A program made the position numbers and the translations under genes. The notes under the pieces are model-generated. The model was not told the DNA's origin, made no database searches, and saw only the letters and a program-made list of their open reading frames with translations. Of a DNA stretch of 16,008 nt, positions 1 to 16,008 are shown piece by piece. Numbering within the stretch: the stretch's first letter is position 1; the number at the start of each line of letters is the position of its first letter. This stretch comes from Candidatus Burkholderia verschuerenii (GTDB lineage Bacteria > Pseudomonadota > Gammaproteobacteria > Burkholderiales > Burkholderiaceae), in the NCBI RefSeq assembly GCF_001189365.1, contig NZ_LFJJ01000125.1, forward strand, positions 1-16,008, given 5' to 3'.

Positions 1-50
1 AGCTCAACGTCATGCCTCAACCTCTACTCGTGCGCTGCAGACCTGGCTGA

Positions 51-449
51 GATGTGCGTTTACGTCTGCACCAGACTGCGTCGTTGGGTCCATTCCGGCA
101 AATTCAATTTTGCAGGCCAGACTACTTCATTGTGATGACGCACGATCACTCGCTGGACTTTTCGCTCACGCAACGCATCATGCGACGCGAGGACTTTGCG
201 TACTTCGGGCTGATCGGCTCGAAGACGAAGCGCGTGAAGTTCGAGCGGCGTCTGATCGAGCGCGGCGTCGCGGCGGATCGGTTGCCCGAGATCACCTGTC
301 CGATCGGCGTGGAAGGTATCGTCGATAAGGCGCCGTGGTCGATCGCGCTGGCGGTGACGGCGCAACTGCTGCGCGTGCGGGAGATGACGGCGCGGATGGG
401 TGCGCCGTCGATGAATCGCAGCCGCGTGCTTACTGCTGCTGCACGTTGA
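51..449 (+). CDS. xdhC: XdhC/CoxI-family xanthine dehydrogenase accessory protein, 3' portion; gene begins upstream of the window; in-frame TGA at 48-50
   Basis: Translation ...DYFIVMTHDHSLDFSLTQRIMRREDFAYFGLIGSKTKRVKFERRLIERGV..CPIGVEGI..KAPWSIALAVTAQLL matches the conserved XdhC C-terminal core (THDHxLD, GxIGSxxK, CPIGL). The same frame carries TGA at 48-50, so the ORF track begins at a GTG at 54. The stop is at 447-449 and overlaps the convergent SPFH gene by 20 nt. Confidence 0.6.
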   Translation, partial: DVRLRLHQTASLGPFRQIQFCRPDYFIVMTHDHSLDFSLTQRIMRREDFAYFGLIGSKTKRVKFERRLIERGVAADRLPEITCPIGVEGIVDKAPWSIALAVTAQLLRVREMTARMGAPSMNRSRVLTAAAR

Positions 450-1311
450 GGAACGGCACCGGCGCGCCCGCGCCGAGATAAGTCGGCAGCGCGCCGTTCC
501 ATTTGTTGATCGCCTGCAAGCGCAGATATTGCTCGCCGCCGTTCGTCTTCACGGCCTGCGCCTGAATCGCGATCGATTCCGCTTCGCCGCGCGCCTTTTC
601 GATCTGCTGCTCGGCTTCGAACTTCACGCGCTGCAACTCGCGCTCGGCCTGCTCCGCGCGCTGGCTCGCGGTGACTTTCGCTTCGATCGCGGCATCGAAG
701 GCCTGACTGAACTTGAAGTTCGTCATGTTGATGTCCTGAATCAACAGCCTGTAACCCTGCAGCTTCGTGCGCAATCCAGCCAGAATGCCTTCCGACACCT
801 GCTGGCGCTTCGTCACGAGTTCCTCCGCCGTGTAGTGCGCGACCACCGACTTGAAGACTTCGAACATCGCGGGCTGAACGTAGCTCGCTTCGTATTCGAG
901 CGTCGGCGAATTGCGATACAGCGCGATCACGTGCGCCGGATCGACGCGATAGTTCATCGTCAGATCGGTATGCACCGACTGCAAGTCTTTCGACGCGGCC
1001 TGCGCGCCCGTGATGCGCGCGACATCGAGCCCGACGAACACTTCATGCACTTTCGCCACCGGCGAAACCAGATGCGGGCCTTCGGCGAGCGTCTCGGCCT
1101 CGACATGTCCCCACGTCGTGACGACGCCGATCTTCGACGACGACACTTGCGTGAAGCACGCGGACAGCGCCGCGATCGCCGCGACCGCGACGCCCGTGCC
1201 GATCACCGTCGGCACATGGACCGCGTGCTTCGGCGTGCGTTTCGACATGAAGAAGACGACCGCCGCCATGGCGACGAGCGCCGGCAACGCGATGAGAACG
1301 ATCGGGCCCAT
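430..1311 (-). CDS. SPFH/band-7 (prohibitin-family) membrane protein
   Basis: ATG at 1311 is preceded by AAGGA 6 nt upstream. N-terminal hydrophobic segment MGPIVLIALPALVAMAAVVFF, then an SPFH core (KIGVVTTWGHV...LQSVHTDLTMNYRVDPAHVIALYRN...) and a coiled-coil C-terminus rich in A/E/Q/R. The gene lies inside a 652-aa stop-free ORF (430..2388) that is an artefact of GC-rich read-through. Confidence 0.8.
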   Translation of the reverse strand: MGPIVLIALPALVAMAAVVFFMSKRTPKHAVHVPTVIGTGVAVAAIAALSACFTQVSSSKIGVVTTWGHVEAETLAEGPHLVSPVAKVHEVFVGLDVARITGAQAASKDLQSVHTDLTMNYRVDPAHVIALYRNSPTLEYEASYVQPAMFEVFKSVVAHYTAEELVTKRQQVSEGILAGLRTKLQGYRLLIQDINMTNFKFSQAFDAAIEAKVTASQRAEQAERELQRVKFEAEQQIEKARGEAESIAIQAQAVKTNGGEQYLRLQAINKWNGALPTYLGAGAPVPFLNVQQQ

Positions 1312-1469
1312 TTTGATGTCCTTTTCGATTGAGGGCTGAAGCCGTTCCGGCCCCTCCGGAACGTGCGAGCGTTTATTGTGCAGCGCACTCGCGTAGGAAT
1401 GTTGGAAGTGTGGGTGCGGGAAAACGAAGGGTATGGATGCTGGCGCACGCATGCACGGCGAAGAACGGT

Positions 1470-2388
1470 TCAGGTCAGACCGTTCGCCACGCGAAACCGT
1501 CCCGGCGCGACGCCGTACAGTTCCTTGAACCGCTTGGAAAACGCCGCTTCGGATTGGTAACCGACATCCGCCGCCACATCGGCGATGCTCTTTTTGGTGT
1601 GCGTGAGCATGGTGCTGGCGAGCTGCATCCGCACATGGCCGAGCAGCGCGAGCGGCGAACTGTCGGAATGCGCGGAGAACGCCCGCATGTAGGTGGCGCA
1701 CGACATTGCCGCTTCCCTGGCGAGCAATTCCAGCCGTCCACGGTTCGGCGGGCCGCTCCAGCATCGCGATGATCGACGCGCCCAGCCACCGGTTGGCCAG
1801 CAGCGCGAGCACGCCCGCGACCGACGGCTGTTCGGCGAGCCACGCGCGCAGCACCATCGTGAAGAGCGCGGTCGATAGCGCGGTGATGATCGACGGCGCG
1901 CCGAGTTGCGCTTCGTCGGCTTCGCGACGCATCGCGCCGATCAGCGCGGCGAGATAAGGCGCCGAGGCATCCGAAAACGAGACGTGGACGACATCGGGCA
2001 GGACATCGATCAGCAAGGCGCGCGGCGCGTACAGAAAACGTCCGCAGAGCAGATCGAGTTCCGCCGCGCGGCCGTCGACGCAATTGCTTTTCAGGGTAAT
2101 CGTGCCTTGCGGCTGCTTGCGCACCGCGACCGCCTCCTCATCCGCCGATGCCGTCGCGACGCTCAGCACATGCGCATCGCCGCGCGGCAGCACGAAGATA
2201 TCGCCCGCGTTCAGCGTGAGCGTCGGCCGGCCCTTGCGCGCGACGAAGCACGTTCCGGCCAGCACGACGTGAAACACCGCTTCGCCGGCGGGCGCGTGAT
2301 CCAGTTCCAGCGGACCGCGCAACAGACAGCGCAGATCGAGCGCGCCGGAAAGATTCGCGAGTTGGAGCAGACGGTCGAGAGCGTCCAT
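1470..2388 (-). pseudogene. AraC-family transcriptional regulator (cupin N-domain + HTH), disrupted by a frameshift near 1733-1737
   Basis: The N-terminal cupin/AraC-binding domain (MDALDRLLQ...GDIFVLPRGDAHVL...) reads in the 430..2388 frame down to ...RPAEPWT. The C-terminal AraC HTH (LLAREAAMSCATYMRAFSAHSDSSPLALLGHVRMQLASTMLTHTKKSIADVAADVGYQSEAAFSKRFKELYGVAPGRF) reads in the frame of ORF 1470..1727. Removing one G from acGGctgg restores a continuous PWT-LELLAREAAMS. Confidence 0.8.
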
Positions 2389-2441
2389 CGGGCGGTCGGC
2401 TTAGGAAAAGGGTCCGTCCAGATAATAGCGGAGAACAGGCG

Positions 2442-3427
2442 CTATTCGGTGACCGTATCGACGTCGCTTTCCTCGCCCGATGCCGTGACGGCGCGCTTGC
2501 GCGTCAGCGACGCCGACACGCTCGACATCAGTTCGCGCAGCCACGCGACATCGGTCGGCTGCTCGGGCTGCGGCAGTGACAGCTGATAGCACTTGATGCG
2601 CGGAAACGGCACCAGCGAGTCCATCACCGCGAGCGGCAGCATCGACGCGTAATGCTGCGCGAAGCGGCGCGGCGCGGTGAAGATCAGATCGGATTGCAGC
2701 AGCACCTGCGGCACCAGCCCGAAGTAGGGGATCGTCGTCACGATGCGCCGTTCGATGCCCGCGCGCGCCAGCCCTACGTCGATCGGATGCCGCTTGCCGC
2801 CGCTGTACGGCGTCGGCGCGAGATGCGCGGCGCGCGCGTAGCGTTCGACCGTCAGCGGTTCGCGCGTGAGCGGATGATCGGCGCGCATCAGGCAGACGAA
2901 AACATCCGCGAACAAATCCTGCCGGTCGAAACGCGGTTCCGGCTTGGCTTGGTCCAGTTGGCGACCACCATCAGATCGATCTCGCCTTCGTCGAGCGCGC
3001 GTTCGTGATCGCGCATCGGATTCAGCGATTCGATTTCCAGACGCGCGTTCGGCGCGGCATCGCGGAAAGCGGCGACCAGCGTCGGCATGAAGAAACCATT
3101 GAGGTAATCCGGCGCGGCGACGCGGAACGTGCGGCGCGAACTGGCGGCGTCGAAATCGCCGTGCGGCGTCGCGACGAATTCGACTTCCCGCAAGGCGTGC
3201 TGGGCGGGCGCGAGCAGCGATTCGCCGTATTCGGTCGGCACCATGCCCTGTTTGCCGCGCACGAGAATGGGATCGCCGAGAATCTCGCGCAGCCGCCGCA
3301 GCGCCGTGCTGATCGCCGGTTGCGTCTGGTTCAGCCGCTGCGCCGTCTGCGTGACGCTGCTCTCGAGCAAAAGCGTCCGCAGCACGCGGATGAGCCAGAT
3401 ATCGAGTGAGTCGGCGGGGTCGGTCAT
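2442..3427 (-). pseudogene. LysR-family transcriptional regulator, disrupted by a 5-bp tandem duplication (frameshift) near 2941-2952
   Basis: The N-terminal HTH (MTDPADSLDIWLIRVLRTLLLESSVTQTAQRLNQTQPAISTALRRLREILGDPILVRGK...) is in the frame of ORF 2888..3484. The C-terminal substrate-binding domain (..EPRFDRQDLFADVFVCLMRADHPL...VTTIPYFGLVPQVLLQSDLIFTAPRRFA...) is in the frame of ORF 2442..3497. The junction sequence ggcttggcttgg (minus strand aagccaagcc) is a GGCTT x2 repeat. Deleting one copy gives W-T-K-P-E-P-R-F-D in frame. Confidence 0.8.
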
Positions 3428-3666
3428 ATCGGTCGAACGATGGAAAACGGATGGCCGCCGACCTTTGCCGACCTGCGCGCCCACATCTCACGGACACAAT
3501 GCGCGCGCGGACGAAGCGTGCGATCGCACGTCGTCCGTCAACAAATAGTCACACAGCCTGATGCGAGGTTAAACGCTTTCCGCCATCCGGCCCATAGCGC
3601 ACGCCCTATGCACGGCATTACCGGCGCGCGTCGGTCGGCTTGCCGCCACGTTTGCGCCACGTTGCG

Positions 3667-4311
3667 TCAGGTGAAATCGGCGTCGCGCGGGGCCATCGGC
3701 AGATTGCTGATGCGCTTGACCTCGGCGGCTTCCGGCCAGTTCGGCGAACGCGCGACGTACAGGACCATCGGCAAGGTGTCCTCGCCCCAGAAAATCTGCT
3801 CGTTGACGACGAAAGTCGGCACGCCGAACACGCCCAGCGAGACGGCGCGCTCGTTGTTGTCGCGCAGACGCGTCTTGATGTCGTCGTCCTCGATGCGCTG
3901 GACCGCATCCGGCAGGCCGACGCGCTGGCACAAATCGGCGAAACCTTCCACCGACGAGCAATCGCGCCCTTCGCGCCAGATATAGCGAAAAATTTCGCGC
4001 ACGACGTGGATATCGCCTTCCGCGAGCACGGCCAGGCGCAGCGCCTTGTTCGGATCGAACGGATGCACGGGCGGCATCTTGAACGGAATGCCGAGCTGTT
4101 CGGCGCGGAACAGCGCGTGCCGGTACGTGAAGATGCGTTTCGACGGAATCGTGGTGGCGTGCGGCTGGCCCCAGCGGTCGAGCAGCTTCATCAACTGGAT
4201 CGGCGTCAGCGCGAACGGCATGTCGGGCCATTTGTCGTGCTGTTCCAGCAGCAGATACGAGAACGGCGAGATGAAATCGAAAAAGAAATACGGTTAACCG
4301 GGGCCGCTCAT
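3667..4311 (-). pseudogene. 2-hydroxychromene-2-carboxylate isomerase / DsbA-like thioredoxin-fold protein with an in-frame TAA at codon 6
   Basis: ATG at 4311 is preceded by a strong RBS (AAGGGAGAAACCAAC-ATG). Translation is MSGPG*PYFFFDFISPFSYLLLEQHDKWPDMPFALTP...GVFGVPTFVVNEQIFWGEDTLPMV. It contains the conserved FDFxSPFSY N-terminal active-site motif and the C-terminal GVPTFVV..FWG.D motif of the HCCA-isomerase/DsbA family. TAA at 4294-4296 (minus) lies inside the palindrome CGGTTAACCG (4291-4300). Confidence 0.75.
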
Positions 4312-4507
4312 GTTGGTTTCTCCCTTCCCTGGGCCGCGTCTGGGCCTCATCGTGTGCTCGCCTGTCGCTGTTGGGTCGATGCCGGACGTTTCCATCCGCC
4401 GTTCTATGGATATTACGTGTTGCGCTGCTTACGTGCTGCCTTGTTCCGCTCCGGCCTTCGATCGGCTCGCTGCGTTTGTCACCGATCCCGCCGCCGATTC
4501 CGTCGCC

Positions 4508-5863
4508 GATATGTTCGCGTAGCACGTAAAACTGATCGGCGAAGGCGAGCGGCATCTTCATCCGGTTCACCGACGTTTCGATCGCGTCGATGCGCTCGAG
4601 CAGCGCGTCGCGCTGCGACGTGTCCGGGCCGCTGATGGCTTCGCGCTCGATCGCGATCAGCGCGCCGTACCAGCGATAGATCCGCGATTTCATCCGCCAT
4701 CGGTATAGCCCCGGCACCAGCCGCAAGCCCGGAATCAGCACGACGATCAGCGGCACCAGCACGACCAGCACGCGATCGGCGAGACTCGCGAGCCAGAACG
4801 GCAGCGTGCGGTACAGAAAGCTCTTGCCCGACTTGTAATAGCGCTCGGCGTTGTCGCTGATGCGGAATTCGTGGGCGAGCGGCGCGGGAAACTCGTTCGC
4901 GCGCTGCAGCAGGTTGGCGCGGCTGTGCACTTCGCGGGCGGCTTCGATCAGCAAGTCGGAGAGCGCCGGATGCAGGCTGTCGCGGGCGACGAGTTCGGCC
5001 GTCGGCGCGATCGTATGCACCGGATGCGGCGGCAGATTGCGGGCGAAGTCGAACGCGCCCATCGGGAAATCGATGGTCGTTAGATACGGGAAGCGGCGCG
5101 CGTAGGCATCGGCCTGCGCGAAATCCATGAAACGCACGCCGGGCGTGCGCAGCAGCTTGGCCATCGTCGGCGGTTGGGCGGAATCGCCGGTCAGGAACAC
5201 GGCGTCGGCCTTGTCGGTTTCCAGCGCATCGGCGGCGGCGTCGCCGGCGAGCGGCAGCAAAGGCGTATCGCCGCCCGGCTCGATGCCGTTCGCCTTCAGC
5301 AATTGCAGCGACAACACCCGCGTGCCGCTGCCTTCCGCGCCGATCGCGAGCCGCTTGCCCTTCAGTTCCGACAGACGCGTGACCGGCGCGCCGCGATAAA
5401 ACACCGCGAGCGGCACATACGACACGCTGCCGAGCGATTCGAGATGATCGTGCGGGGTGCCGGGCTGCGTCATCCCGCCCTGCACGAAGCCGACGTCGAC
5501 ATCGGAATGCGAATCTTCCAGACGCGTGAGGTTATCGAGCGAGCCTTGCGTCTCCAGCACGTTGAGCGTGACGCGGTTGCGCGCGAGGATCGCCTTGTAC
5601 TTCTGCGCGCTGTTCCAGAAGAAGCTGCCTTTCGGGCCGGCCGCGATGGTCAGCGTATCGGGCGGCGCGGGCTGGATCAGCCGCACGGCGACCCACAGCG
5701 CGACGATGCAGACGAGGAGAATCGGGCCGAAGGTAAGCGCGAGATCGCGCCAGGAGATCGCCACGAAGCGGGCGACGATCTTCGGCTGGGGCCGGCGCCG
5801 CTGGCCGTGTTCCGGACCGTCGGACGGACGCGGTTCCGGTTCGCTTCCTGAGGGCTGGGTCAT
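4508..5863 (-). CDS. TAXI-family TRAP transporter solute receptor, membrane-anchored; the homology-supported part is given and the 3' end/stop is not resolved
   Basis: ATG at 5863. Cytoplasmic N-tail, TM helix (LTFGPILLVCIVALWVAVRLI), periplasmic TAXI/Imp-like domain (TIAAGPKGSFFWNSAQKYKAIL...KRLAIGAEGSGTRVLSLQLLKANGIE...), and two C-terminal TM helices (LPFWLASLADRVLVVLVPLIVVLIPGL...). The frame stays open through 4508 (..FYVLREHI) and continues with no stop down to 3569, across the next gene. The native stop therefore appears lost or shifted. Confidence 0.7.
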
Positions 5864-6443
5864 CTCCCGCGAGCTTACCCGAACACGGCGCGCGGTCGCG
5901 GCCCGCCGCGCGCCATGCCGTCGATGGTACATGACTCGCGGCCGCCGGCTTGAGCGATGCGCGGCGCGTCGGGCGAGTATGACAGCCATGTGTTGAAGCG
6001 GCCGGCATTGTTGCGCGCATGCGGACCGATCGTCGCCGGATGTTAAAAGTTTTGCGCTAATGGCCGCGCTGGGCTAAATTGACGTTCGCCGCTTCATGTC
6101 AGGCAAGCATCACGAAACACAGGCATCGCGCCTGAAGCAGAATAAGAGACACAGAAACGAGCCGACGGGCGCAGCGCCCGGTCAAATCGGCCGATGTTTG
6201 TTCATTCGCCAGCCTCTCGCAGTACCGCATCGCAGCAACGGCCGTTTCGACAGTTCGTTTGCCGCCGCGTGCCGGGCCCATTGTGGCCGGCGCGCGACCG
6301 CGGTTGGCCCGCGCCATCGTGCCGGGTCGGCCGCCGCTGCGTGCGGTCCGTTTTGAAGTGCACAAGGAAAGCAAAAACCGAAAGTGCAAAGCGAGCGAAG
6401 TAGCAACTGTGCGAAGTCAACAAACGTATCAAAAGGAGAAACC

Positions 6444-6812
6444 ATGAAAGCCGTCGATCTGTTGAAGGCGCTGGGCCTGGCGTTGTGCGTGACGGTGGCA
6501 TCGAGTGCGTATGCCCAGTCGAGCGACGCGGCCGCCACCGATTCCACCGCTGCGCCGACCAAGGCGCAGAAATCCACGACCAAGAAGGCCGATCGCAAGC
6601 TCGGCTACGACGTTCGCCGCGCGCTGTCGAAGGCGCAGGGCTTCGATGTGTCCAATGTCTTCGTGCGCTCGCGCGGCGGTGCGGTGACCCTGACGGGCAC
6701 GGTGCCGGAAGGCGGCCAGATCGCTCAAGCGGGTGAAGTCGCCAAGGGCGTGGCGGGCGTGACGTCGGTGAGCAACAAGCTCACGCTCGGCACGCAAGGT
6801 GGCGGCCAGTAA
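6444..6812 (+). CDS. BON-domain periplasmic protein (OsmY-like), secreted
   Basis: RBS AGGAG 5 nt upstream of ATG 6444. Signal peptide MKAVDLLKALGLALCVTVASSAYA|Q, a Lys/Thr-rich linker, and a C-terminal BON domain (LGYDVRRALSKAQGFDVSNVFVRSRGGAVTLTGTVPEGGQIAQAGEVAKGVAGVTSVSNKLTL). Confidence 0.85.
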   Translation: MKAVDLLKALGLALCVTVASSAYAQSSDAAATDSTAAPTKAQKSTTKKADRKLGYDVRRALSKAQGFDVSNVFVRSRGGAVTLTGTVPEGGQIAQAGEVAKGVAGVTSVSNKLTLGTQGGGQ

Positions 6813-6927
6813 GCGAGGCCGGAGGTCCGTCCGGCCGCGCGGGTGCGGCCACGCGATCGGGTGGCCGGGTTCCGGCGTGTCCGGTGCGTGACGAGCTCGC
6901 ACATCGCCCGAATGATGCGGGTTCCTA

Positions 6928-6964
6928 AACGGGTTCCGGTTTGCGCCGGAGCCCGTTTTCGTTT
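6928..6964 (+). terminator. Rho-independent terminator downstream of the BON-domain gene
   Basis: AACGGGTTCCGG-tttgcg-CCGGAGCCCGTT forms a 12-bp stem with one mismatch. It is followed by the T-rich stretch ttcgttt. Confidence 0.55.
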
Positions 6965-7147
6965 ATCCGTTCGATTGCCCTGATTTGCCGCGCGTGCCAG
7001 CGAAACTAAGGAGTGTCGAGAAGCGACAGGCGGACGATTCGGCGCAATACTCGCTCTGCTGCGTTTGTTGTACGTTCGTAATGCATTCGATGGCGTTGGA
7101 GTTGGCGTTCGATTCGATGATTCGGCAACCGATGGCGGAGACACACA

Positions 7148-9269
7148 ATGACAAGATTCGCGCGGATCCAGACTCTCAGGCGACAGGCGACGACCCTCGC
7201 GCTGCTCGCGACAGCAGCCACCTTCGCCGGATGCCACGGCGGTGACGACAACAGCGGCCCGCCGACCAACACCCTGCCGAGCTTCGTTTCCGGCTCGGTG
7301 AAGATTCAAAGCTACGACGGCAACACCGACGACTTGCTGACCGCCGGCCTCGGCAAGAGCGGACTGGCGTCGTCGACGGCGCCGGCCATCGCCAATGCGA
7401 CGTCGCCGACGGCGGCCGAATTGCGACGCCTCGCGATCTACTCGAACTATCGCGCGCTCGTCGACATGACGGCGAACGGCGGCTACGGGCGCTTCTGGGG
7501 GCCGAACGTCGATCTGAACGGCAACGACACGCTCGGCGAAGGCAAGATCGCCGGCAAGGAATATCTCGCCTACGCCGACGATGGCAGCGGCAATCTCAAC
7601 GTCAGTCTGATGGTACAGATTCCGTCGAGCTTCAACGCGGATCAGCCGTGCATCGTCACGGCGACGTCGTCGGGCTCGCGCGGCATTTACGGCGCGATAT
7701 CGGCGGCGGGCGAATGGGGACTCAAGCGCGGCTGCGCGGTCGCCTACACCGACAAGGGCAGCGGCAACGGCGCGCAGAATCTCACGACCAATCTCGTCAC
7801 GCTGATCGACGGCACGCTGTCCAACGCGACGCTCGCGGGCAATACGGCGATCTTCAAGGCGAACGTGAGCAGCGCGGCGCTGGCGTCGTACAACGCGAGC
7901 TTGCCGGCGCGTTACGCGTTCAAGCATGCGCATTCGCAGCAGAATCCGGAGAAGGACTGGGGCAAGAACACCTTGCAGGCGATCCAGTTCGCCTACTGGG
8001 CGCTCAACGATACCTACGGCGCGCTCAACAACGGCTCGACGCATGCCGTGCGCTACGAGAAAGGCGGCATCACGACGATCGCGGCATCGGTCAGCAACGG
8101 CGGCGGGGCATCGCTGGCGGCGGCCGAGCAGGATACCGACGGCTGGATCACGGCGGTCGTGGTCGGCGAGCCGCAGATCAACCTCAATCTGCCGTCGCAG
8201 GTGGCGGTGTACGAGGGCAACACGCCGGTCGGCTCGTTCGGGCGGCCGCTCGCCGACTACATGAGCCTCGCGAATCTGCTGCAACCGTGCGCGGCGCTGG
8301 CGCCGGCGGCGGCCAACGCGCCGAATCTGAGCGCCTTGCCGGTCGCGACGACCGCGGCGATCCGCACGGCGCGATGCGCGTCGCTGGCGCTGGGCGGCGT
8401 GATCGGCGGTGGCGATACCACGACGCAGGCCAACAACGCGCTGGCGGCGCTGCATCAGGCGGGCTACGAAGCCGATTCCGACACGCTGCACGCGCCGATG
8501 TGGGACTCGCAGGCCGTTGCCCGCCGTCGCCGTGACTTACGCCGACGCGTACATGAAGGCCAGCGTCGTCGATAACCTGTGCAACTTCAGCTTCGGCACG
8601 ACCAATCCGGCGACCGGCGCGGCGGGCGTGACGCCGCTGATTTCGCCGATGCCGACGGTCTTCGGCAACGGCAACGGCGTGCCGCCGACCAACGGCATCA
8701 ATCTGGTCTACAACGCGGGAACGAGCGGCGCGGCGGATCATCGTCTGGCGACGGCCGATGCCAGTTTCACCGGCGCGGCTTGTCTGCGCGAACTATGGAC
8801 GACCGGCAATCCGACGATGGCGGCGAGCGTCAACGCGATCCGCGTGAACGCCAATCTGCGCGGCAAGCCGGCGATCATCGTGCAGGGGCGCTCGGACGCG
8901 CTCGTGCCGATCAACCATGCGTCGCGTCCGTATCTCGGCGCGAACCGGATGGCGGAGGGCAGCAAGAGCCAGTTGTCGCTCTACGAGATCATGAACGGTC
9001 AGCACTTCGACGCGTTTCTGGGCGTGGCCGGTTTCGATACGCGCTTCATTCCGGTCCACTATTACAACCTTCAGGCGCTGAACCTGATGTGGGCGCATCT
9101 GAAGAACAACGCGCCGCTGCCGCCGTCGCAGGTGGTGCGCGCGGTCGCGCGTGGCGGCTCGCCGAGTGCCGCGCCCGCGCTGACGACGGCGAATCTGCCG
9201 GCGATCGCGGCCAGTCCGGGCGCGAATGCGATTCTGGTGAATGGCGGGGTGGTGAACGTGCCGAGGTGA
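7148..9269 (+). pseudogene. D-(-)-3-hydroxybutyrate oligomer hydrolase (PhaZ2/PhaY-type), lipoprotein; frameshift near 8515-8525
   Basis: GGAG sits 7 nt upstream of ATG 7148. Lipoprotein signal with lipobox LALLATAATFAG|C. The N-terminal 475 aa (ORF 7148..8575) match 3HB-oligomer hydrolase: LLTAGLGKSGL, ELRRLAIYSNYRALVDMTANGGYG, CIVTATSSGSRGIYGAI..EWGLKRGCAVAYTDKG, and the lipase-box-like ASVSNGGG. The C-terminal 250 aa continue in ORF 8409..9269 (PAVAVTYADAYMKASVVDNLCNFSFGTT...). The frame switch sits in caggccgttgCCCgccgtcgccgtg. Deleting one C gives ..DSQAVAAVAVTYADAY.. in frame. Confidence 0.8.
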
Positions 9270-9385
9270 GGGGCGTACCTTATGCCAAAAACTGGCGCCG
9301 TTGAAGTGTTTTACGCTGATATTGGCGGACGATAAGCAACTAAAGAGGCATAGACGATGCAGGCGCGAACAACGACAATGGTCGT

Positions 9386-10150
9386 ATGGACTCACACCCA
9401 ATCACATTTTCGTTGAGCGACGAATCGCCGGGCTACGCAATCAGTCCGGCGCGCGTCCCGTTGGGCACGCTCACCGCATTCGCGAGCGACGTGCAGGAAT
9501 TTCTCCTCGGCAGCGAGAGGTCCGTAAGTGCCGAATTGGAGGTCGCCGTGGTCAACGGATCGCTGGCGATCGAAGCGCGCAATGCCGATTCGCCAGGGCT
9601 GCTGCACGATTTAAAACGACTTGCCAGCGGATTGGATCTGACAAGGATCGATCCGAAACGTCGGTCGGTCATCGAGCGATGGCAATTGACGGCACGCGAC
9701 GCAAAATCGTGGAAACTGGAAATTAGTGGTGCGGAAAGGACGACGATTGTGGTTTCAAATGTGACGGATTTTCATTTCGCCGACCACCATCAGTTGGTTA
9801 ATGTCGAGCGTTATATTCGCGGTGAAGTGGTCAAGTTGGGCGGAGCAAGGGAGCCGACTGCCCGCATCCGTTTGGCCAACGGAAAAATGCTGACCGTGCA
9901 TGCAGAGCGCGAGACCATACGCGCCGAAACTGAAAATCACCTTTATAGACACGTGCATGTCCGAATTCGAGCAAAGCTTGATATTGAAACAGGTGAATTG
10001 AGTGACGCACGACTAGTAGAGTTCGTCGATTATTCCCCTGGGTTCGATGAACAGGCATTCGAAAAATTGACTTCGGAAGGCACGGAAGCATGGAAGGATG
10101 TAGATGACCCGGCTGAATGGGTTCGAAATTTGCGGGGAACGTCTGAGTGA
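9386..10150 (+). CDS. Hypothetical 254-aa protein with no recognisable domain; first gene of a low-GC two-gene island
   Basis: First in-frame ATG after an upstream TAA. The ORF lies in a ~48% GC region against ~65% flanks. Its stop TGA (10148-10150) overlaps the GTG start of the downstream PIN gene (GTGA). Weak RBS. Acidic C-terminus. Contains the sequence RAETENH (Rx5H). Confidence 0.6.
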   Translation: MDSHPITFSLSDESPGYAISPARVPLGTLTAFASDVQEFLLGSERSVSAELEVAVVNGSLAIEARNADSPGLLHDLKRLASGLDLTRIDPKRRSVIERWQLTARDAKSWKLEISGAERTTIVVSNVTDFHFADHHQLVNVERYIRGEVVKLGGAREPTARIRLANGKMLTVHAERETIRAETENHLYRHVHVRIRAKLDIETGELSDARLVEFVDYSPGFDEQAFEKLTSEGTEAWKDVDDPAEWVRNLRGTSE

Positions 10151-10647
10151 ATTCCGTCTTGCTTGATACCAGCTTCCTGATTTGCTTGAGTGATTCGAAT
10201 CGCTCGCATCATGCTCTTGCGAAGACTTACTTTCAGCGATTTATCGCCGAAGAAATCACGATGTATTTGTCGACCATCGTCATTAGCGAGTTCGAGGTTA
10301 AACAGCGAATATCGAGTTTGGGCCTTTCGAATTTTATCGTTCTACCGTTTAATTACGAAGACGCGTTACTGACAGCCAGGCTCTTCAACGAAATGCACGG
10401 CAATCGGCAGGAATCGGACGCGCGTGTCGCCATCAAAGACGACGCCAAGATACTCGGCCAATGCGTCTTCGCGGGTATAACGCATTTTGCGACGGACGAT
10501 GATAAATGCGTCCGGCGAATGAAAGCGGTGCGTGCAGGCGGTTTAGCCACGGACTTGCCGCATGCGATAGACCTGCACGAGCCTTTCTGGGAAGGATGGT
10601 TCACGGAAAATAATCAAGGCAATCTTCCTTTTGACTCGAATGCTTAG
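10147..10647 (+). CDS. PIN-domain (VapC-like) ribonuclease
   Basis: N-terminus VNSVLLDTSFLICL (the PIN motif LDT[NS]xLI with the first catalytic Asp). Later acidic residues occur at spacings typical of PIN (ISEFEV, ATDDDKC, D near 120). GTG start overlaps the upstream stop by 4 nt. Low GC. Confidence 0.7.
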   Translation: MNSVLLDTSFLICLSDSNRSHHALAKTYFQRFIAEEITMYLSTIVISEFEVKQRISSLGLSNFIVLPFNYEDALLTARLFNEMHGNRQESDARVAIKDDAKILGQCVFAGITHFATDDDKCVRRMKAVRAGGLATDLPHAIDLHEPFWEGWFTENNQGNLPFDSNA

Positions 10648-10665
10648 CACGCCTTGAGGAAATTC

Positions 10666-11472
10666 CTAGCGAGATAGCGTCGAGGTTGCCGACCCCGAAG
10701 CCGACGCCGAAACCGGCCCCTCCGCCGGCGTCGACGGCGCGCTAGCGCCCGATGCGTTCGCGGCCGCCGCCTGCGCTTCCTTGCGCGTCTCGGCCGCTGC
10801 CGCCGATGCCTGGATCGCCGTCGCCGCGGCCGGGTTCGTCACGACGATCGGCGTCGGCGTCAGTTCCGGCGAACTCACGACGATCGACGGCGCGAGCGGC
10901 TTGCTCTTCACTTCATCGGCGGCGACGGGCGCGCTGCGTGGCACGGTGCTCAGATAGTGGCCCATCAGCCCGAAAAAGCGGTCGTAGAACTTGCCTGCCG
11001 GCACGGTCTCGCTGGTGATCTTCACCATCGCGTCGTTGTTCGAGCGGATCGGCAGCGACAGCGAGCCGAACACGCTCAGGCCGACGCTCGCCGACGTGTC
11101 GCTCTTCTTGAGCGCGTAGCCGTCCTGCACGGCGTTCACATACGCGATGCTCGTGTTGGTCGCATTTTCCCCCGGCGTACAGACGACGTGGAACGACACG
11201 ACCACGTGCTGATCGGCGGTCGGCTGGAAGTTTTTGGTCGCATCGACGGTATCGGGCTGGCCCATCGTCGTCAGGAAACCTTGCGATAGCAGGGCGCGGC
11301 GCGCGGCTTCGCAGGTTTCGTTGACGGTGGCGTCGAAGTTGTGCGCGAACGGACTCGCGCCGGAATTGAACAATTCTTGCTGATAGCTCGGCGTGGTGGC
11401 GGAGCGGCCCCCGCAGGCGGCGAGGGCGAGGAGTGCGAGGGAGGCGAAAGCGAGACGCAGCGGAGTGGGCAT
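10666..11472 (-). CDS. Putative lipoprotein with an Ala/Pro/Ser-rich low-complexity C-terminal tail
   Basis: ATG at 11472. Signal peptide with lipobox MPTPLRLAFASLALLALAA|CGG. Globular middle region, then a 90-aa A/P/S/T-rich tail. Convergent with the PIN gene, with an 18-bp gap. Confidence 0.7.
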   Translation of the reverse strand: MPTPLRLAFASLALLALAACGGRSATTPSYQQELFNSGASPFAHNFDATVNETCEAARRALLSQGFLTTMGQPDTVDATKNFQPTADQHVVVSFHVVCTPGENATNTSIAYVNAVQDGYALKKSDTSASVGLSVFGSLSLPIRSNNDAMVKITSETVPAGKFYDRFFGLMGHYLSTVPRSAPVAADEVKSKPLAPSIVVSSPELTPTPIVVTNPAAATAIQASAAAAETRKEAQAAAANASGASAPSTPAEGPVSASASGSATSTLSR

Positions 11473-11611
11473 AGGCACGGCAAATACGAGATGTGAGACG
11501 CGGCAAACGTAAATTGTAGTGCCGTCGGACCCGCCGATGAAAAAGGAGGTTCCGAAAAACATCGTCGAATCCGTGGCTTACAGCTTGATGAAAACGCCGT
11601 CGATCAATACT

Positions 11612-11637
11612 CAAAAGCCCGGCGCTCAGGCCGGGCT
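11612..11637 (-). terminator. Rho-independent terminator for the DUF4148 gene (minus strand)
   Basis: AGCCCGGC-gctcag-GCCGGGCT is a perfect 8-bp stem. On the minus strand it is followed by CTTTTG. It lies 49 nt past the TAA at 11686-11688. Confidence 0.6.
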
Positions 11638-11685
11638 TCGTTCCGAGCGGCTTTTTCAGCCGCCGCGACGCCTGCTTTCCGATGC

Positions 11686-12030
11686 TTACGGACGATCGAA
11701 ATCGACCGCGCTGACATCGTTCGACGGACGCACGATGCGGCTCAGAAACTTCGACTGCACAGCATGGCCCGATGCCGACGCGCCGTCGCTCACGCCGCCA
11801 AAGGAGGCGTCGGCTGCGGCCGGTTGTGCATCGACGCGCGCTTCGGCGGCCTGGATGTTGGCGGGGTAGGTCGTGTGATCGCTGACGGGGTTGTAGCCGG
11901 CTTGTTCGAGTTGAACCAGTTGCGCCTTCACTTCGGCGCGGGTGACGGGTGCGTTGTCGGCGGCTTGAGCGAACGCGGGAGCAGCGAGGGCGGAAGCGAT
12001 GACAAGAGCGGGAACGATTGACTTGAACAT
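11686..12030 (-). CDS. DUF4148-family small secreted protein
   Basis: GGAGG 6 nt upstream of ATG 12030. Signal peptide MFKSIVPALVIASALAAPAFA|QA. The DUF4148 motif LTRAEVKAQLVQLEQAGYNP..D.TYP is characteristic of Burkholderia. Confidence 0.8.
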   Translation of the reverse strand: MFKSIVPALVIASALAAPAFAQAADNAPVTRAEVKAQLVQLEQAGYNPVSDHTTYPANIQAAEARVDAQPAAADASFGGVSDGASASGHAVQSKFLSRIVRPSNDVSAVDFDRP

Positions 12031-12287
12031 GATGAACCTCCGAATGCTGGTTGACTGCTTGAGGGAACGTTGCGGTGGGAGAACCTGTCTCTCTGATCGC
12101 TTCGTCGTTGAGAGGCAGTCTAGGCCGCAGTGATCTAGGTAAAAACCCTCATTCGGATAAATCAGAATTCTTGGATTGACATTAATCGAGTCAATGAGCG
12201 TTGAAAGCTGATAGTTAAGTTTTCGCTTTATTGGGGGCGATGGCCCGGCCTACGGGATTCTCCGGTGATTCTCGTCGCCTCCCCTTC

Positions 12288-12316
12288 TTGAAATTGCCAA
12301 ATCCCGTCCATATAAT
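12288..12316 (+). promoter_or_regulatory. groESL promoter: -35 TTGAAA / 17-nt spacer / -10 TATAAT. The context CCCCTTCTTGAAA...CCATATAAT is also sigma32-like.
   Basis: TTGAAA at 12288-12293 and TATAAT at 12311-12316, with exact 17-nt spacing. The upstream CCCTTCTTGAAA and downstream CCATAT resemble the RpoH consensus (CTTGAAA / CCCCATNT). Confidence 0.6.
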
Positions 12317-12342
12317 TGGCACTCACCGCACGAGAGTGCTAA
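12316..12342 (+). promoter_or_regulatory. CIRCE operator (HrcA binding site)
   Basis: TTGGCACTC-accgcacga-GAGTGCTAA compared with the consensus TTAGCACTC-N9-GAGTGCTAA. It is a perfect inverted repeat with a 9-nt spacer, immediately abutting the -10 box and 81 nt upstream of groES. Confidence 0.85.
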
Positions 12343-12422
12343 CAAGACATCCGTTCCGGTGAGCTGTGCTCAATGGAACGGGAATTCCCGCGTTTTCAGT
12401 CTCAATCAAGAGAGGAGTGTGT

Positions 12423-12713
12423 ATGAACCTTCGTCCTTTGCACGATCGCGTCATCGTCAAGCGTCTGGACCAGGAAACCAAGACCGCATCGGGCATCGTG
12501 ATCCCCGAAGCCGCCGCCGAAAAGCCGGATCAAGGCGAAGTCCTGGCCATCGGCCCGGGCAAGCGCGATGACAAGGGCGCGCAAATCGCCCTCGACGTGA
12601 AGGTCGGTGACCGCGTGCTGTTCGGCAAGTACGCCGGCCAGACCGTCAAGGTCGACGGGCAAGAGCTGCTCGTCATGCGCGAAGAAGACATCATGGCCGT
12701 TCTGGTCAAGTAA
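12423..12713 (+). CDS. groES: Co-chaperonin GroES
   Basis: GAGGAG RBS 5 nt upstream of ATG 12423. Translation [52 protein letters not shown]...[15 protein letters not shown] is canonical GroES. Confidence 0.97.
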
Positions 12714-12749
12714 GCATCCTTCCTGCACGTTCCGGCTTCGTCTGCCTGA

Positions 12750-14450
<1,701 letters not shown>

Positions 14451-14512
14451 GCTGGCTTTATCGCCGGTTTTACATGGGCGCGGGTCTCGCGAGAGGCTTG
14501 CGTCGTGCCGAA

Positions 14513-14543
14513 GAAAAAAACCCGCAGCGATGCGGGTTTTTTT
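14513..14543. terminator. Bidirectional rho-independent terminator between groEL and the convergent GNAT gene
   Basis: AAAAAAA-CCCGCA-gcga-TGCGGG-TTTTTTT: a 6-bp GC stem flanked by an A7 run and a T7 run. Confidence 0.85.
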
Positions 14544-14608
14544 CGTTTGGAGCGGCCTGCGCGGCGTGGCGTCCGATTTGATCGATGTTCGTTAAATCGA
14601 TCGCTTCT

Positions 14609-15043
14609 GGCATGGACATTCCTCATCAAAGTCATCCAGTTCCCCCTCTCGCCCTGCGCGACGAAACCGTATGGTTCAAGAAAGGGGAGACACGCTTTCG
14701 GCACACGGGTGAGCAACGCCGCCCGATGCTCGTCCGCATAGGTCAGCACCGCGTCGCGCAACACTCCGAAGATGCCGGCGCCGCGTGCTTCAGGGCGCAT
14801 GTAGCCCTGAAGCAGATGAAAACGATCGCCCAATTCTTCCACGCTGATGAAGCCCAGCACCCGTGACGCTTGCGTGATTTGCGCGACAAACCAGCGATAG
14901 CGCGGTCCGTCGTCGAGGGGGTAGCCGCCACACTCTCGACGGACCGAGCGGCTGACGAAAAATCGTCCCATGTGCGCGAAGAATTTTGCCTCGTCGTCGA
15001 TGGAGCGCCATCGCGAAAAGCAGCAATCTTCCACCCGGATCAT
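14609..15043 (-). CDS. GNAT-family N-acetyltransferase; the homology-supported part is given and the stop codon is not resolved
   Basis: ATG at 15043 overlaps the TGA of the upstream IbrA-like gene (ATGA). GNAT motif A is YMRPEARGAGIFGVL. The frame stays open past the domain, straight through the groEL terminator and into groEL (ORF 14240..15043). No in-frame stop precedes the terminator. Confidence 0.65.
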
Positions 15044-16008
15044 GCGCCTGTCTCTTCAGGTGCGCCCCACGCTTGAATGTCCTGTCTGGCGAAACCGAAA
15101 GACAGCGAGCGTGCCATATCCTGTTTTAGAAGTGACAAGGCCACACGGCGCCAGGATGGTTGCGCGCGTCGATTCTCCAGCGCGGGTGTGCCTGCGTCGG
15201 GCCAGGCGTCGAGCGGATAGCCATGGCTCGCCCACCATTGGACAAAGCGTTCGATGCGACGTGCATAGCGACCCTTTGCCCCTCTGGCATGCTGCCGAGC
15301 TGGAAATGGGCATAGGCCTTCCAGGTAGCGAAGGAAGACGGTAGTCCTGTGCCACCGCGATAGCCGAGAAACCGTTGGCGACAATAGCGCGCCGCGTAGT
15401 TGGCGCCAGCAACACGGGTCACCACCCTGAACCAGGTTTCCGGCTCGATGCGATGGAACAGGTCCAACCCTTTGCGCTGGTCATCACCGTAAGGCTGGCA
15501 GATGCGCATTTGCGAAAATGCGATGCCTGCCCAATGCATGTCATCGTACAGCCGGTTGTACGCGTGATGTTTCTCATGCGTGTAGCGCCATAGATCGCCG
15601 AATTTCCAGTCATAGATCGGGAAGAAGCTGACGGCCTGGTCCTCGCTGTCGTGACGCGAACTCCATGCGATCGGCGCGGCGCGACCGGGCGGCGTCCATG
15701 CCCGCCGTTTTCCCGGCCGCCTTGGCCGGATGGCGCGGTATCGGTTCAGGGATTCATCGGCACGAATGCCCACCAGGAACGCGGTCGGAACATCACGAGC
15801 CAACCACGCATCGAAGCCGGCCACGAATTCTTCGAACTCCATGCGGAATCGGTAAAACGGGAAGACTGAAGCATCGCGTATCAAGTTGTGTGCGTCAAGT
15901 TGTGCAGAAATCGGATGCCGGTGGTTTCAGTTGATCCTTCTGTGCGACGTGCGGCGCGAAGGGCGTAGCCCGCAGCGCCGAACGCCGCGCGGCCGCTATG
16001 CAGCAGCG
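15040..16008 (-). pseudogene. PAPS-reductase-like / DUF3440 (IbrA-like) protein, 5'-truncated by the window edge, with a frameshift near 15285-15300
   Basis: The upstream frame (ORF 15126..15884, open from ~15955) carries PAPS-reductase-like motifs (FLVGIRADESLNRYRAI, FFPIYDWKFGDLWRY, TWKAYAHFQLGSMPE). The DUF3440-type C-terminus (RYARRIERFVQWWASHGYPLDAWPDAGTPALENRRAQPSWRRVALSLLKQDMARSLSFGF) is in the frame of ORF 15040..15384. The two frames overlap across 15126-15384. The upstream frame has stops at ~15955 and ~16000, so the N-terminal P-loop part is missing or also shifted. Confidence 0.6.

Follow-up and report, generated by a model that had tools for sequence, protein, structure and literature searches.

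Decayed accessory genes around an intact groESL operon on a contig of the leaf-nodule symbiont Candidatus Burkholderia verschuerenii

The stretch of DNA analyzed here (the window) is a complete contig of 16,008 nt from the draft genome of Candidatus Burkholderia verschuerenii UZHbot4, and carries sixteen genes, among them the chaperonin operon groESL (Table 1). Eight of the sixteen are disrupted: xdhC, the AraC- and LysR-family regulator genes araC and lysR, and the genes for a DsbA-like protein, a TAXI-type solute-binding protein, a 3-hydroxybutyrate (3HB)-oligomer hydrolase, a GNAT acetyltransferase and an IbrA-like PAPS reductase. Intact genes occupy 5,625 bp (35%) of the contig, pseudogene remnants 7,707 bp (48%), and the end of an insertion sequence (IS) 125 bp; there are no notable internal repeats, Rfam families or tRNA genes within the 16,008 nt. 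Five open reading frames (ORFs), encoding a truncated hydrolase of 475 aa, GroEL, a PIN nuclease, a 254-aa protein and a 184-aa DsbA-like protein, match deposited Ca. B. verschuerenii proteins exactly (KND59483.1, KND59489.1, KND59485.1, KND59484.1 and KND59481.1; locus tags BVER_0325x-0326x; taxid 242163). The window has a GC content of 62.6%, and the draft as a whole comprises 6.19 Mb in 446 contigs with 61.9% GC (PMC4896955). Ca. B. verschuerenii belongs to the Caballeronia/B. glathei clade and is placed by the literature in the leaf nodules of Psychotria verschuerenii, with vertical transmission; the leaf-nodule Ca. Burkholderia are described as uncultured, obligate and seed-transmitted symbionts (PMC6054270).

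Table 1. Features of the 16,008-nt window, with positions counted from its first base.
Feature	Position	Strand	Observations
Left contig end replacing xdhC codons 1-64	1..122	.	Without similarity to xdhC
xdhC remnant	123..449	+	Residues 65-168 of 168; tblastn and MAFFT against 7 orthologues
SPFH/Band 7 gene	433..1338	-	301/304 aa align to the C. arvi orthologue, 85%, one frame; Pfam Band_7
AraC-family regulator pseudogene (Cupin_6 + HTH)	1473..2388	-	Frames -1/-2 join at residue 219/220
LysR-family regulator pseudogene	2466..3427	-	Pfam HTH_1 and LysR_substrate on separate ORFs
DsbA-like gene (2-hydroxychromene-2-carboxylate isomerase family)	3667..4311	-	Alignment and translation against 8 references
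TAXI-type solute-binding/membrane protein gene	4511..5989	-	Pfam NMT1_3
BON-domain gene	6444..6812	+	123/123 residues align, one frame, 84.6%; Pfam BON
3-Hydroxybutyrate-oligomer hydrolase pseudogene	7148..9269	+	ORFs 7148-8575 and 8409-9269
254-aa protein gene	9386-10150	+	Intact; homologues full length
166-aa PIN nuclease gene	10147-10647	+	Intact; PIN acidic residues conserved
DUF2242 lipoprotein gene	10666..11472	-	Pfam DUF2242 positions 1-121/121; 91% identity, one frame
DUF4148 gene	11686..12030	-	Intact in Pfam and tblastn comparison
Promoter-like site upstream of groES	12288-12316	+	Sigma-70-like TTGAAA, 17-nt spacer, TATAAT; 11/12 matches
groES	12423-12713	+	Intact; GroES 100% identical to relatives
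groEL	12810-14450	+	Intact; GroEL 98.9% identical to relatives
Bidirectional groEL terminator hairpin	14514-14545		Within stop-less GNAT ORF 14240-15043 (-); sequence AAAAAAACCCGCAGCGATGCGGGTTTTTTT
GNAT acetyltransferase gene	14612..15043	-	Residues 1-142 of 145 versus Ralstonia homologue, 50% identity
IbrA-like PAPS-reductase/DUF3440 pseudogene	15061..15884	-	Residues 127-401 of 416 left
IS256-family terminus	15884..16008	.	125 nt, 92% identical to the copy on Caballeronia grimmiae plasmid p4

Gene content was taken from an ORF listing and Pfam scans of the window. Searching species-representative genomes with the hydrolase gave 80 syntenic loci, mostly from Caballeronia and Paraburkholderia, and a protein look-up with GroES added 10 further loci with gene calls, for a total of 90 related loci. 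Lesions were mapped with the proteins of one locus (L081) as tblastn queries and with MAFFT alignments to eight intact Caballeronia orthologues per gene (seven for xdhC), and the reference for the right end is the intact IbrA-GNAT-ParB operon of Ralstonia megaplasmids, found in a plasmid collection. Between xdhC and the groEL terminator, blastn aligns the window collinearly with Caballeronia genomes at ~78-93% nucleotide identity, with four departures: an SPFH gene that among the references is shared at this locus by C. arvi alone, an insertion at 9265-10760, the start of homology at base 123, and the end of synteny near 14546. The genes of this block are all called full length in the free-living relatives.

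The six damaged genes of the syntenic block carry lesions of several kinds. The sequence-only reading had attributed frameshifts, nonsense codons or lost stops to eight genes; all eight lesions exist, although some differ in type from that list. The xdhC gene is truncated at its 5' end and not frameshifted. Its first 64 codons are gone, including the Rossmann GxGxxG motif, and only positions 44-125 of the Pfam XdhC_C profile are matched. The 122 bases that stand in their place gave no match in the plasmid collection or in ~95 fetched Burkholderiaceae loci (blastn and tblastx); they could belong to the terminus of an IS or other repeat, or mark a deletion junction. In araC, alignment with the eight references places one additional G within 1730-1739, at about 1734-1735 (GTGGAC[G]GCTGG). 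The lysR gene contains a 5-bp tandem duplication (CCAAG-CCAAG, 2941-2952) with an in-frame TGG duplication close by; when metagenomes were scanned with a 38-mer across the 5-bp duplication, the lesion was not seen a second time.

The DsbA-like gene has a 15-bp in-frame deletion and a TAA at codon 6 (4294-4296), where the references have CAG or CAT, a change that takes two substitutions from CAG. No ATG, GTG or TTG start lies ahead of the conserved FFFDFISPFSY motif, and the next such start is downstream of it; the depositors annotated a 184-aa remnant, and the 201-aa protein in RefSeq implies a rarer start inside the motif. In the TAXI gene a 17-nt deletion after 4505 replaces the last ~45 residues. 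The ancestral end of the protein (...EQGST and its stop) can still be read at 4446-4429 in frame +1, with the stop at 4431-4429, and because the deletion has put this stop out of frame, translation would not stop before 3569, with the extended ORF crossing the DsbA-like gene. The hydrolase has gained one base pair within 8509-8525. Homology passes from frame +2 to frame +3 at residue 466, the products are ORFs of 475 aa and ~250 aa, and the Pfam 3HBOH profile is divided at position 430/431. Its homologues among the matches listed are 680-716 aa long; the five exceptions, at 467-491 aa, are truncated or partial.

The two remaining damaged genes lie at the right end, beyond the groEL terminator hairpin, which is the last sequence that the window has in common with Caballeronia; the usual genes after groEL would be DUF72, thiD and rubredoxin. 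The GNAT gene has lost its stop codon at a deletion junction (14546-14612), and its ORF continues to 14240, antisense to groEL; its transcript would probably end at the groEL terminator before any stop codon is reached, and so become a substrate for trans-translation. A small protein encoded downstream of groEL in the relatives was considered as a GNAT homologue and ruled out by tblastn. The IbrA-like remnant is in two frames (residues 127-326 and 333-401), with about two additional nucleotides at 15268-15269. On the Ralstonia megaplasmids the corresponding operon is intact, with an IbrA-like PAPS reductase of 416 aa, a GNAT protein of 145 aa and a ParB-like nuclease of 209 aa; with the last of these as query, no tblastn match to a ParB/IbrB-like nuclease was found within the window. 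By this comparison, the IbrA-like and GNAT genes are the decayed remnant of the same cassette, whose ParB/IbrB gene was lost at the deletion junction. The IS256-family end adjoins the first retained IbrA codon, and the element truncates this gene at its 5' side; the annotated copy on C. grimmiae p4 is bounded by imperfect terminal inverted repeats and flanked by an 8-bp target duplication. The contig ends within the IS, as fits an assembly that broke where copies of the element are repeated, and this single terminus is the whole IS load seen, a figure for this contig alone.

It is conceivable that some of the disrupted frames are still functional, with the hydrolase made as two polypeptides, with programmed frameshifting, or with a downstream start in the DsbA-like gene. 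Sequence past the lesions is indeed well conserved, at 90.7% identity in the AraC helix-turn-helix (HTH) region and 85.9% in the C-terminal part of the hydrolase, and RefSeq lists the 201-aa DsbA-like protein; recent inactivation explains this conservation equally well. No slippery-site context is apparent at the indels, none of the lesions occurs in any free-living orthologue, alignment coverage indicates that the nucleotide-binding motifs are missing from what is left of xdhC and IbrA, and the disrupted genes have a raised ratio of nonsynonymous to synonymous substitution rates (dN/dS, or omega; see below). Continued function as a general explanation of the disrupted frames is thus very unlikely. 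Taken gene by gene, loss of function is what the lesions point to, least securely for TAXI, GNAT and the DsbA-like gene.

The other eight genes are intact. For groES, groEL, SPFH, BON, DUF4148 and the DUF2242 lipoprotein this had been recognized from the raw sequence and is borne out by alignments to relatives, and the 254-aa protein and its PIN partner, absent from that earlier list, belong with them. The predicted groES promoter region is ~92% conserved with relatives. We note that the shifted frame of araC is free of stops through the intergenic region and into the SPFH frame, forming a continuous 652-aa ORF (430-2388, leftwards) that could trick gene callers into an AraC-SPFH fusion, although the SPFH gene starts from an ATG of its own at 1335.

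All six of the syntenic accessory genes (xdhC, araC, lysR, DsbA-like, TAXI and hydrolase) are hit in the window, whereas in the 90 related loci, excluding that of Ca. B. kirkii, there are two frameshifts in ~318 instances of the block genes. The lesion density is far above chance. An earlier description of this density as exceptional is apt in comparison with free-living bacteria, but not within the leaf-nodule symbionts, where it is typical.

Selection on the genes was assessed by omega, first with branch-specific rates on a neighbor-joining topology and then with an estimator for terminal branches that needs no topology, bootstrapped 300 times over codons; these replaced a simple tally of window-specific replacements, which was confounded by branch length and was dropped. 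For the six broken syntenic genes the terminal-branch omega of the window is 0.27 (0.22-0.33), compared with 0.08-0.13 for the same genes in seven free-living Caballeronia (upper limits no higher than 0.17) and 0.16 in Ca. B. kirkii. A free-living reference (L082) has a synonymous branch length equal to that of the window. The intact BON and DUF2242 genes of the window together give 0.17, and groESL gives 0.05, with no excess of change. Terminal dN is 0.070 in the broken genes and 0.004 in groESL, whose 1.9 kb contain no indel. The dN/dS of the broken genes is thus significantly raised, and purifying selection on them has been relaxed on the window lineage, with groESL strongly constrained. 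The small number of lesions, one or two in each gene, and an omega far short of 1 suggest that the pseudogenes are young; if omega is treated as a mixture of the free-living value and omega = 1, neutral evolution would have occupied ~5-15% of the terminal branch.

The same data bear on the quality of the assembly, since frameshifts and stops in a metagenome-derived draft could be sequencing or assembly errors in genes that are in reality intact. The assembly is fragmented (446 contigs; PMC4896955), the araC and hydrolase lesions are single-base insertions, and most of the genes have a single lesion, in a field that is cautious about pseudogenes with fewer than three indels (PMC6054270). However, six of the eight lesions are complex, namely the 5-bp duplication, the 17-nt deletion, the CAG to TAA change, the IS junction, the deletion junction and the 5' replacement, in agreement with the initial remark that several are atypical of sequencing artefacts, and neither of the two 1-bp insertions lies in a homopolymer run. 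Nor can random error give a ten-fold rise of dN in the broken genes next to a clean groESL on the same contig, where ~5.6 kb of intact coding sequence is free of any lesion. Because dN is raised outside groESL only and most of the lesions are complex, sequencing error, which the sequence-only reading had kept as its alternative, is very unlikely to explain the contig.

The closest parallel is in Ca. B. kirkii UZHbot1, the leaf-nodule symbiont of Psychotria kirkii, which has the same block (xdhC-araC-lysR-dsbA-TAXI-BON-3HBOH-DUF2242-DUF4148-groESL; HE603796.1). Its GroES is identical and its groEL intact, and araC, lysR, TAXI and the hydrolase are frameshifted there too. The frameshifts lie at different residues in the two organisms (HE603796.1, 1000-8350, compared with the window, 1473-9269), and are therefore independent events in two leaf-nodule symbionts. 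The Ca. B. kirkii hydrolase matches in six pieces and three reading frames, whereas that of the window has one frame change; overall there are more lesions per gene in Ca. B. kirkii, where xdhC and the DsbA-like gene are still called, and one or two per gene in the window. The smaller number suggests that the window pseudogenes are the younger ones. The genomes also differ in size, at ~4.0 Mb for Ca. B. kirkii and 6.19 Mb for Ca. B. verschuerenii (PMC4896955).

The breakage of araC, lysR, TAXI and the hydrolase at differing positions in both organisms could alternatively reflect adaptive, convergent loss, in which inactivation of the regulators, the TAXI protein and the polyhydroxybutyrate (PHB)-oligomer hydrolase is selected for in the leaf nodule. 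If true, loss of extracellular PHB-oligomer use, for example, and of its regulation would be favored there, as opposed to random decay. All four of the genes broken in Ca. B. kirkii are among the six of eleven shared genes that are broken in the window (hypergeometric P ~0.045). This test is weak, being confounded by gene length (a bigger mutational target) and by the essentiality of groESL; moreover, about half of the genes in such genomes are decayed, and overlap is expected. Omega is also up in the intact BON and DUF2242 genes, which argues for a relaxation of selection across the lineage. We regard selected loss as unlikely and the overlap with Ca. B. kirkii as too weak to claim it; drift, we infer, is the more plausible cause of the losses.

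The reading that we favor, at a probability of roughly 0.93, is that this contig is a sample of reductive genome evolution in the host-restricted leaf-nodule symbiont Ca. B. verschuerenii. Reductive evolution in a host-restricted Burkholderia, with the leaf-nodule lineages named first, had been proposed from the raw sequence without knowledge of where the DNA came from, and the dN/dS values, the exact matches to Ca. B. verschuerenii proteins and the independent lesions in Ca. B. kirkii all support it. Host restriction, in which effective populations are small and the niche is stable and supplied with nutrients, would relax purifying selection, and inactivating mutations would become fixed in genes that the symbiont no longer needs. 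Here the dispensable set would include two transcription regulators, a solute-binding transporter component, the PHB-oligomer hydrolase, a xanthine-dehydrogenase accessory protein, the DsbA-like isomerase and the mobile IbrA-GNAT-ParB cassette, with the essential chaperonin operon groESL kept under strong constraint. Insertion sequences, of the IS256 family in this case, and deletions break synteny and truncate genes.

Several observations weigh against this interpretation. The lesions are read from the assembled sequence, and the least secure of them, and the likeliest to be errors, are the two insertions of 1 bp, in araC and in the hydrolase. Most genes are hit only once or twice; to avoid counting sequencing errors, Danneels et al. 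2018 required three or more indels per pseudogene, a filter under which Ca. B. verschuerenii supplied just three (PMC6054270). It is because of this early stage, with few lesions per gene, that the dN/dS evidence matters. An omega of 0.27 is itself far from 1, and selection has acted on these genes over the greater part of the branch. As many as three of the eight genes may retain some function, as the TAXI protein is without its last ~45 residues only, the GNAT domain is complete, and RefSeq has the 201-aa DsbA-like protein. Finally, the coding figure of 35% describes this contig alone and is not genome-wide.

In comparison with published genomes the window differs in nothing essential from those of leaf-nodule symbionts. 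For leaf-nodule Ca. Burkholderia, PMC6054270 (citing Pinto-Carbo 2016) speaks of an 'inordinate amount of pseudogenes', puts coding capacity at 41.7-67.3% and describes every functional category as affected by frameshift or null mutations. Across leaf-nodule and leaf-endophyte Burkholderia sensu lato coding is 41-70%, with IS proliferation and GC contents in the free-living range (Pinto-Carbo 2016; Danneels 2018, 2022), and the strict local coding of 35% in the window is at or below the published genome-wide range. The phenomenon is accordingly known and no new biology is claimed: genome erosion in leaf-nodule Burkholderia has been in print since 2012, and this genome since 2016. What the contig offers is a clean local case, with young pseudogenes beside a strongly constrained chaperonin operon and with an IS and a deletion junction marking the loss of synteny, and an instance in which a reading of the raw sequence alone sufficed to recognize the signature of an early-stage host-restricted symbiont.

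The erosion of the Ca. B. kirkii UZHbot1 genome was reportedly described by Carlier and Eberl in 2012. More distant parallels are the early-stage reductive genomes of Sodalis glossinidius, Burkholderia mallei and Mycobacterium leprae, which have many pseudogenes whose orthologues are intact in free-living relatives, IS-mediated truncation and rearrangement, and retained chaperonins; these are organisms of other clades with other hosts, whereas the window organism belongs to the Caballeronia clade. In B. mallei, a member of Burkholderia sensu stricto, reduction is dominated by the expansion of IS families other than the IS256 family.

A less eroded relative may be represented in environmental sequence. 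A metagenome contig (P0002; JGI, 3,905 bp) encodes an intact 705-aa hydrolase that is 89% identical to the N-terminal fragment in the window, and the best hydrolase identity among species-representative genomes is lower, at only 83%. This suggests that Ca. B. verschuerenii has a close relative in environmental data that is free-living or has undergone less erosion.

The insertion at 9265-10760, between the hydrolase and DUF2242 genes, has a GC content of ~51% and is not present at this site in any of the references; the two-gene PIN cassette that it carries is horizontally acquired. Neither the 254-aa protein nor its PIN partner, and likewise not the GNAT protein, has a significant NCBIfam or PADLOC match, and the DNA of the cassette has no match in the plasmid collection. 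The 254-aa protein has ~48 full-length homologues in the Burkholderiales, without a family assignment, and is always followed by a partner of 161-166 aa. In the AlphaFold model (pLDDT 81) its C-terminal part forms an OB/IF1-like barrel, though the fold matches are only weak (E ~3e-3). The pair recurs in Paraburkholderia, Caballeronia and Cupriavidus, with an integrase, IS110, Rep3 and a KAP NTPase among its neighbors, and is probably a mobile toxin-antitoxin or defense-type module that persists in a decaying genome.

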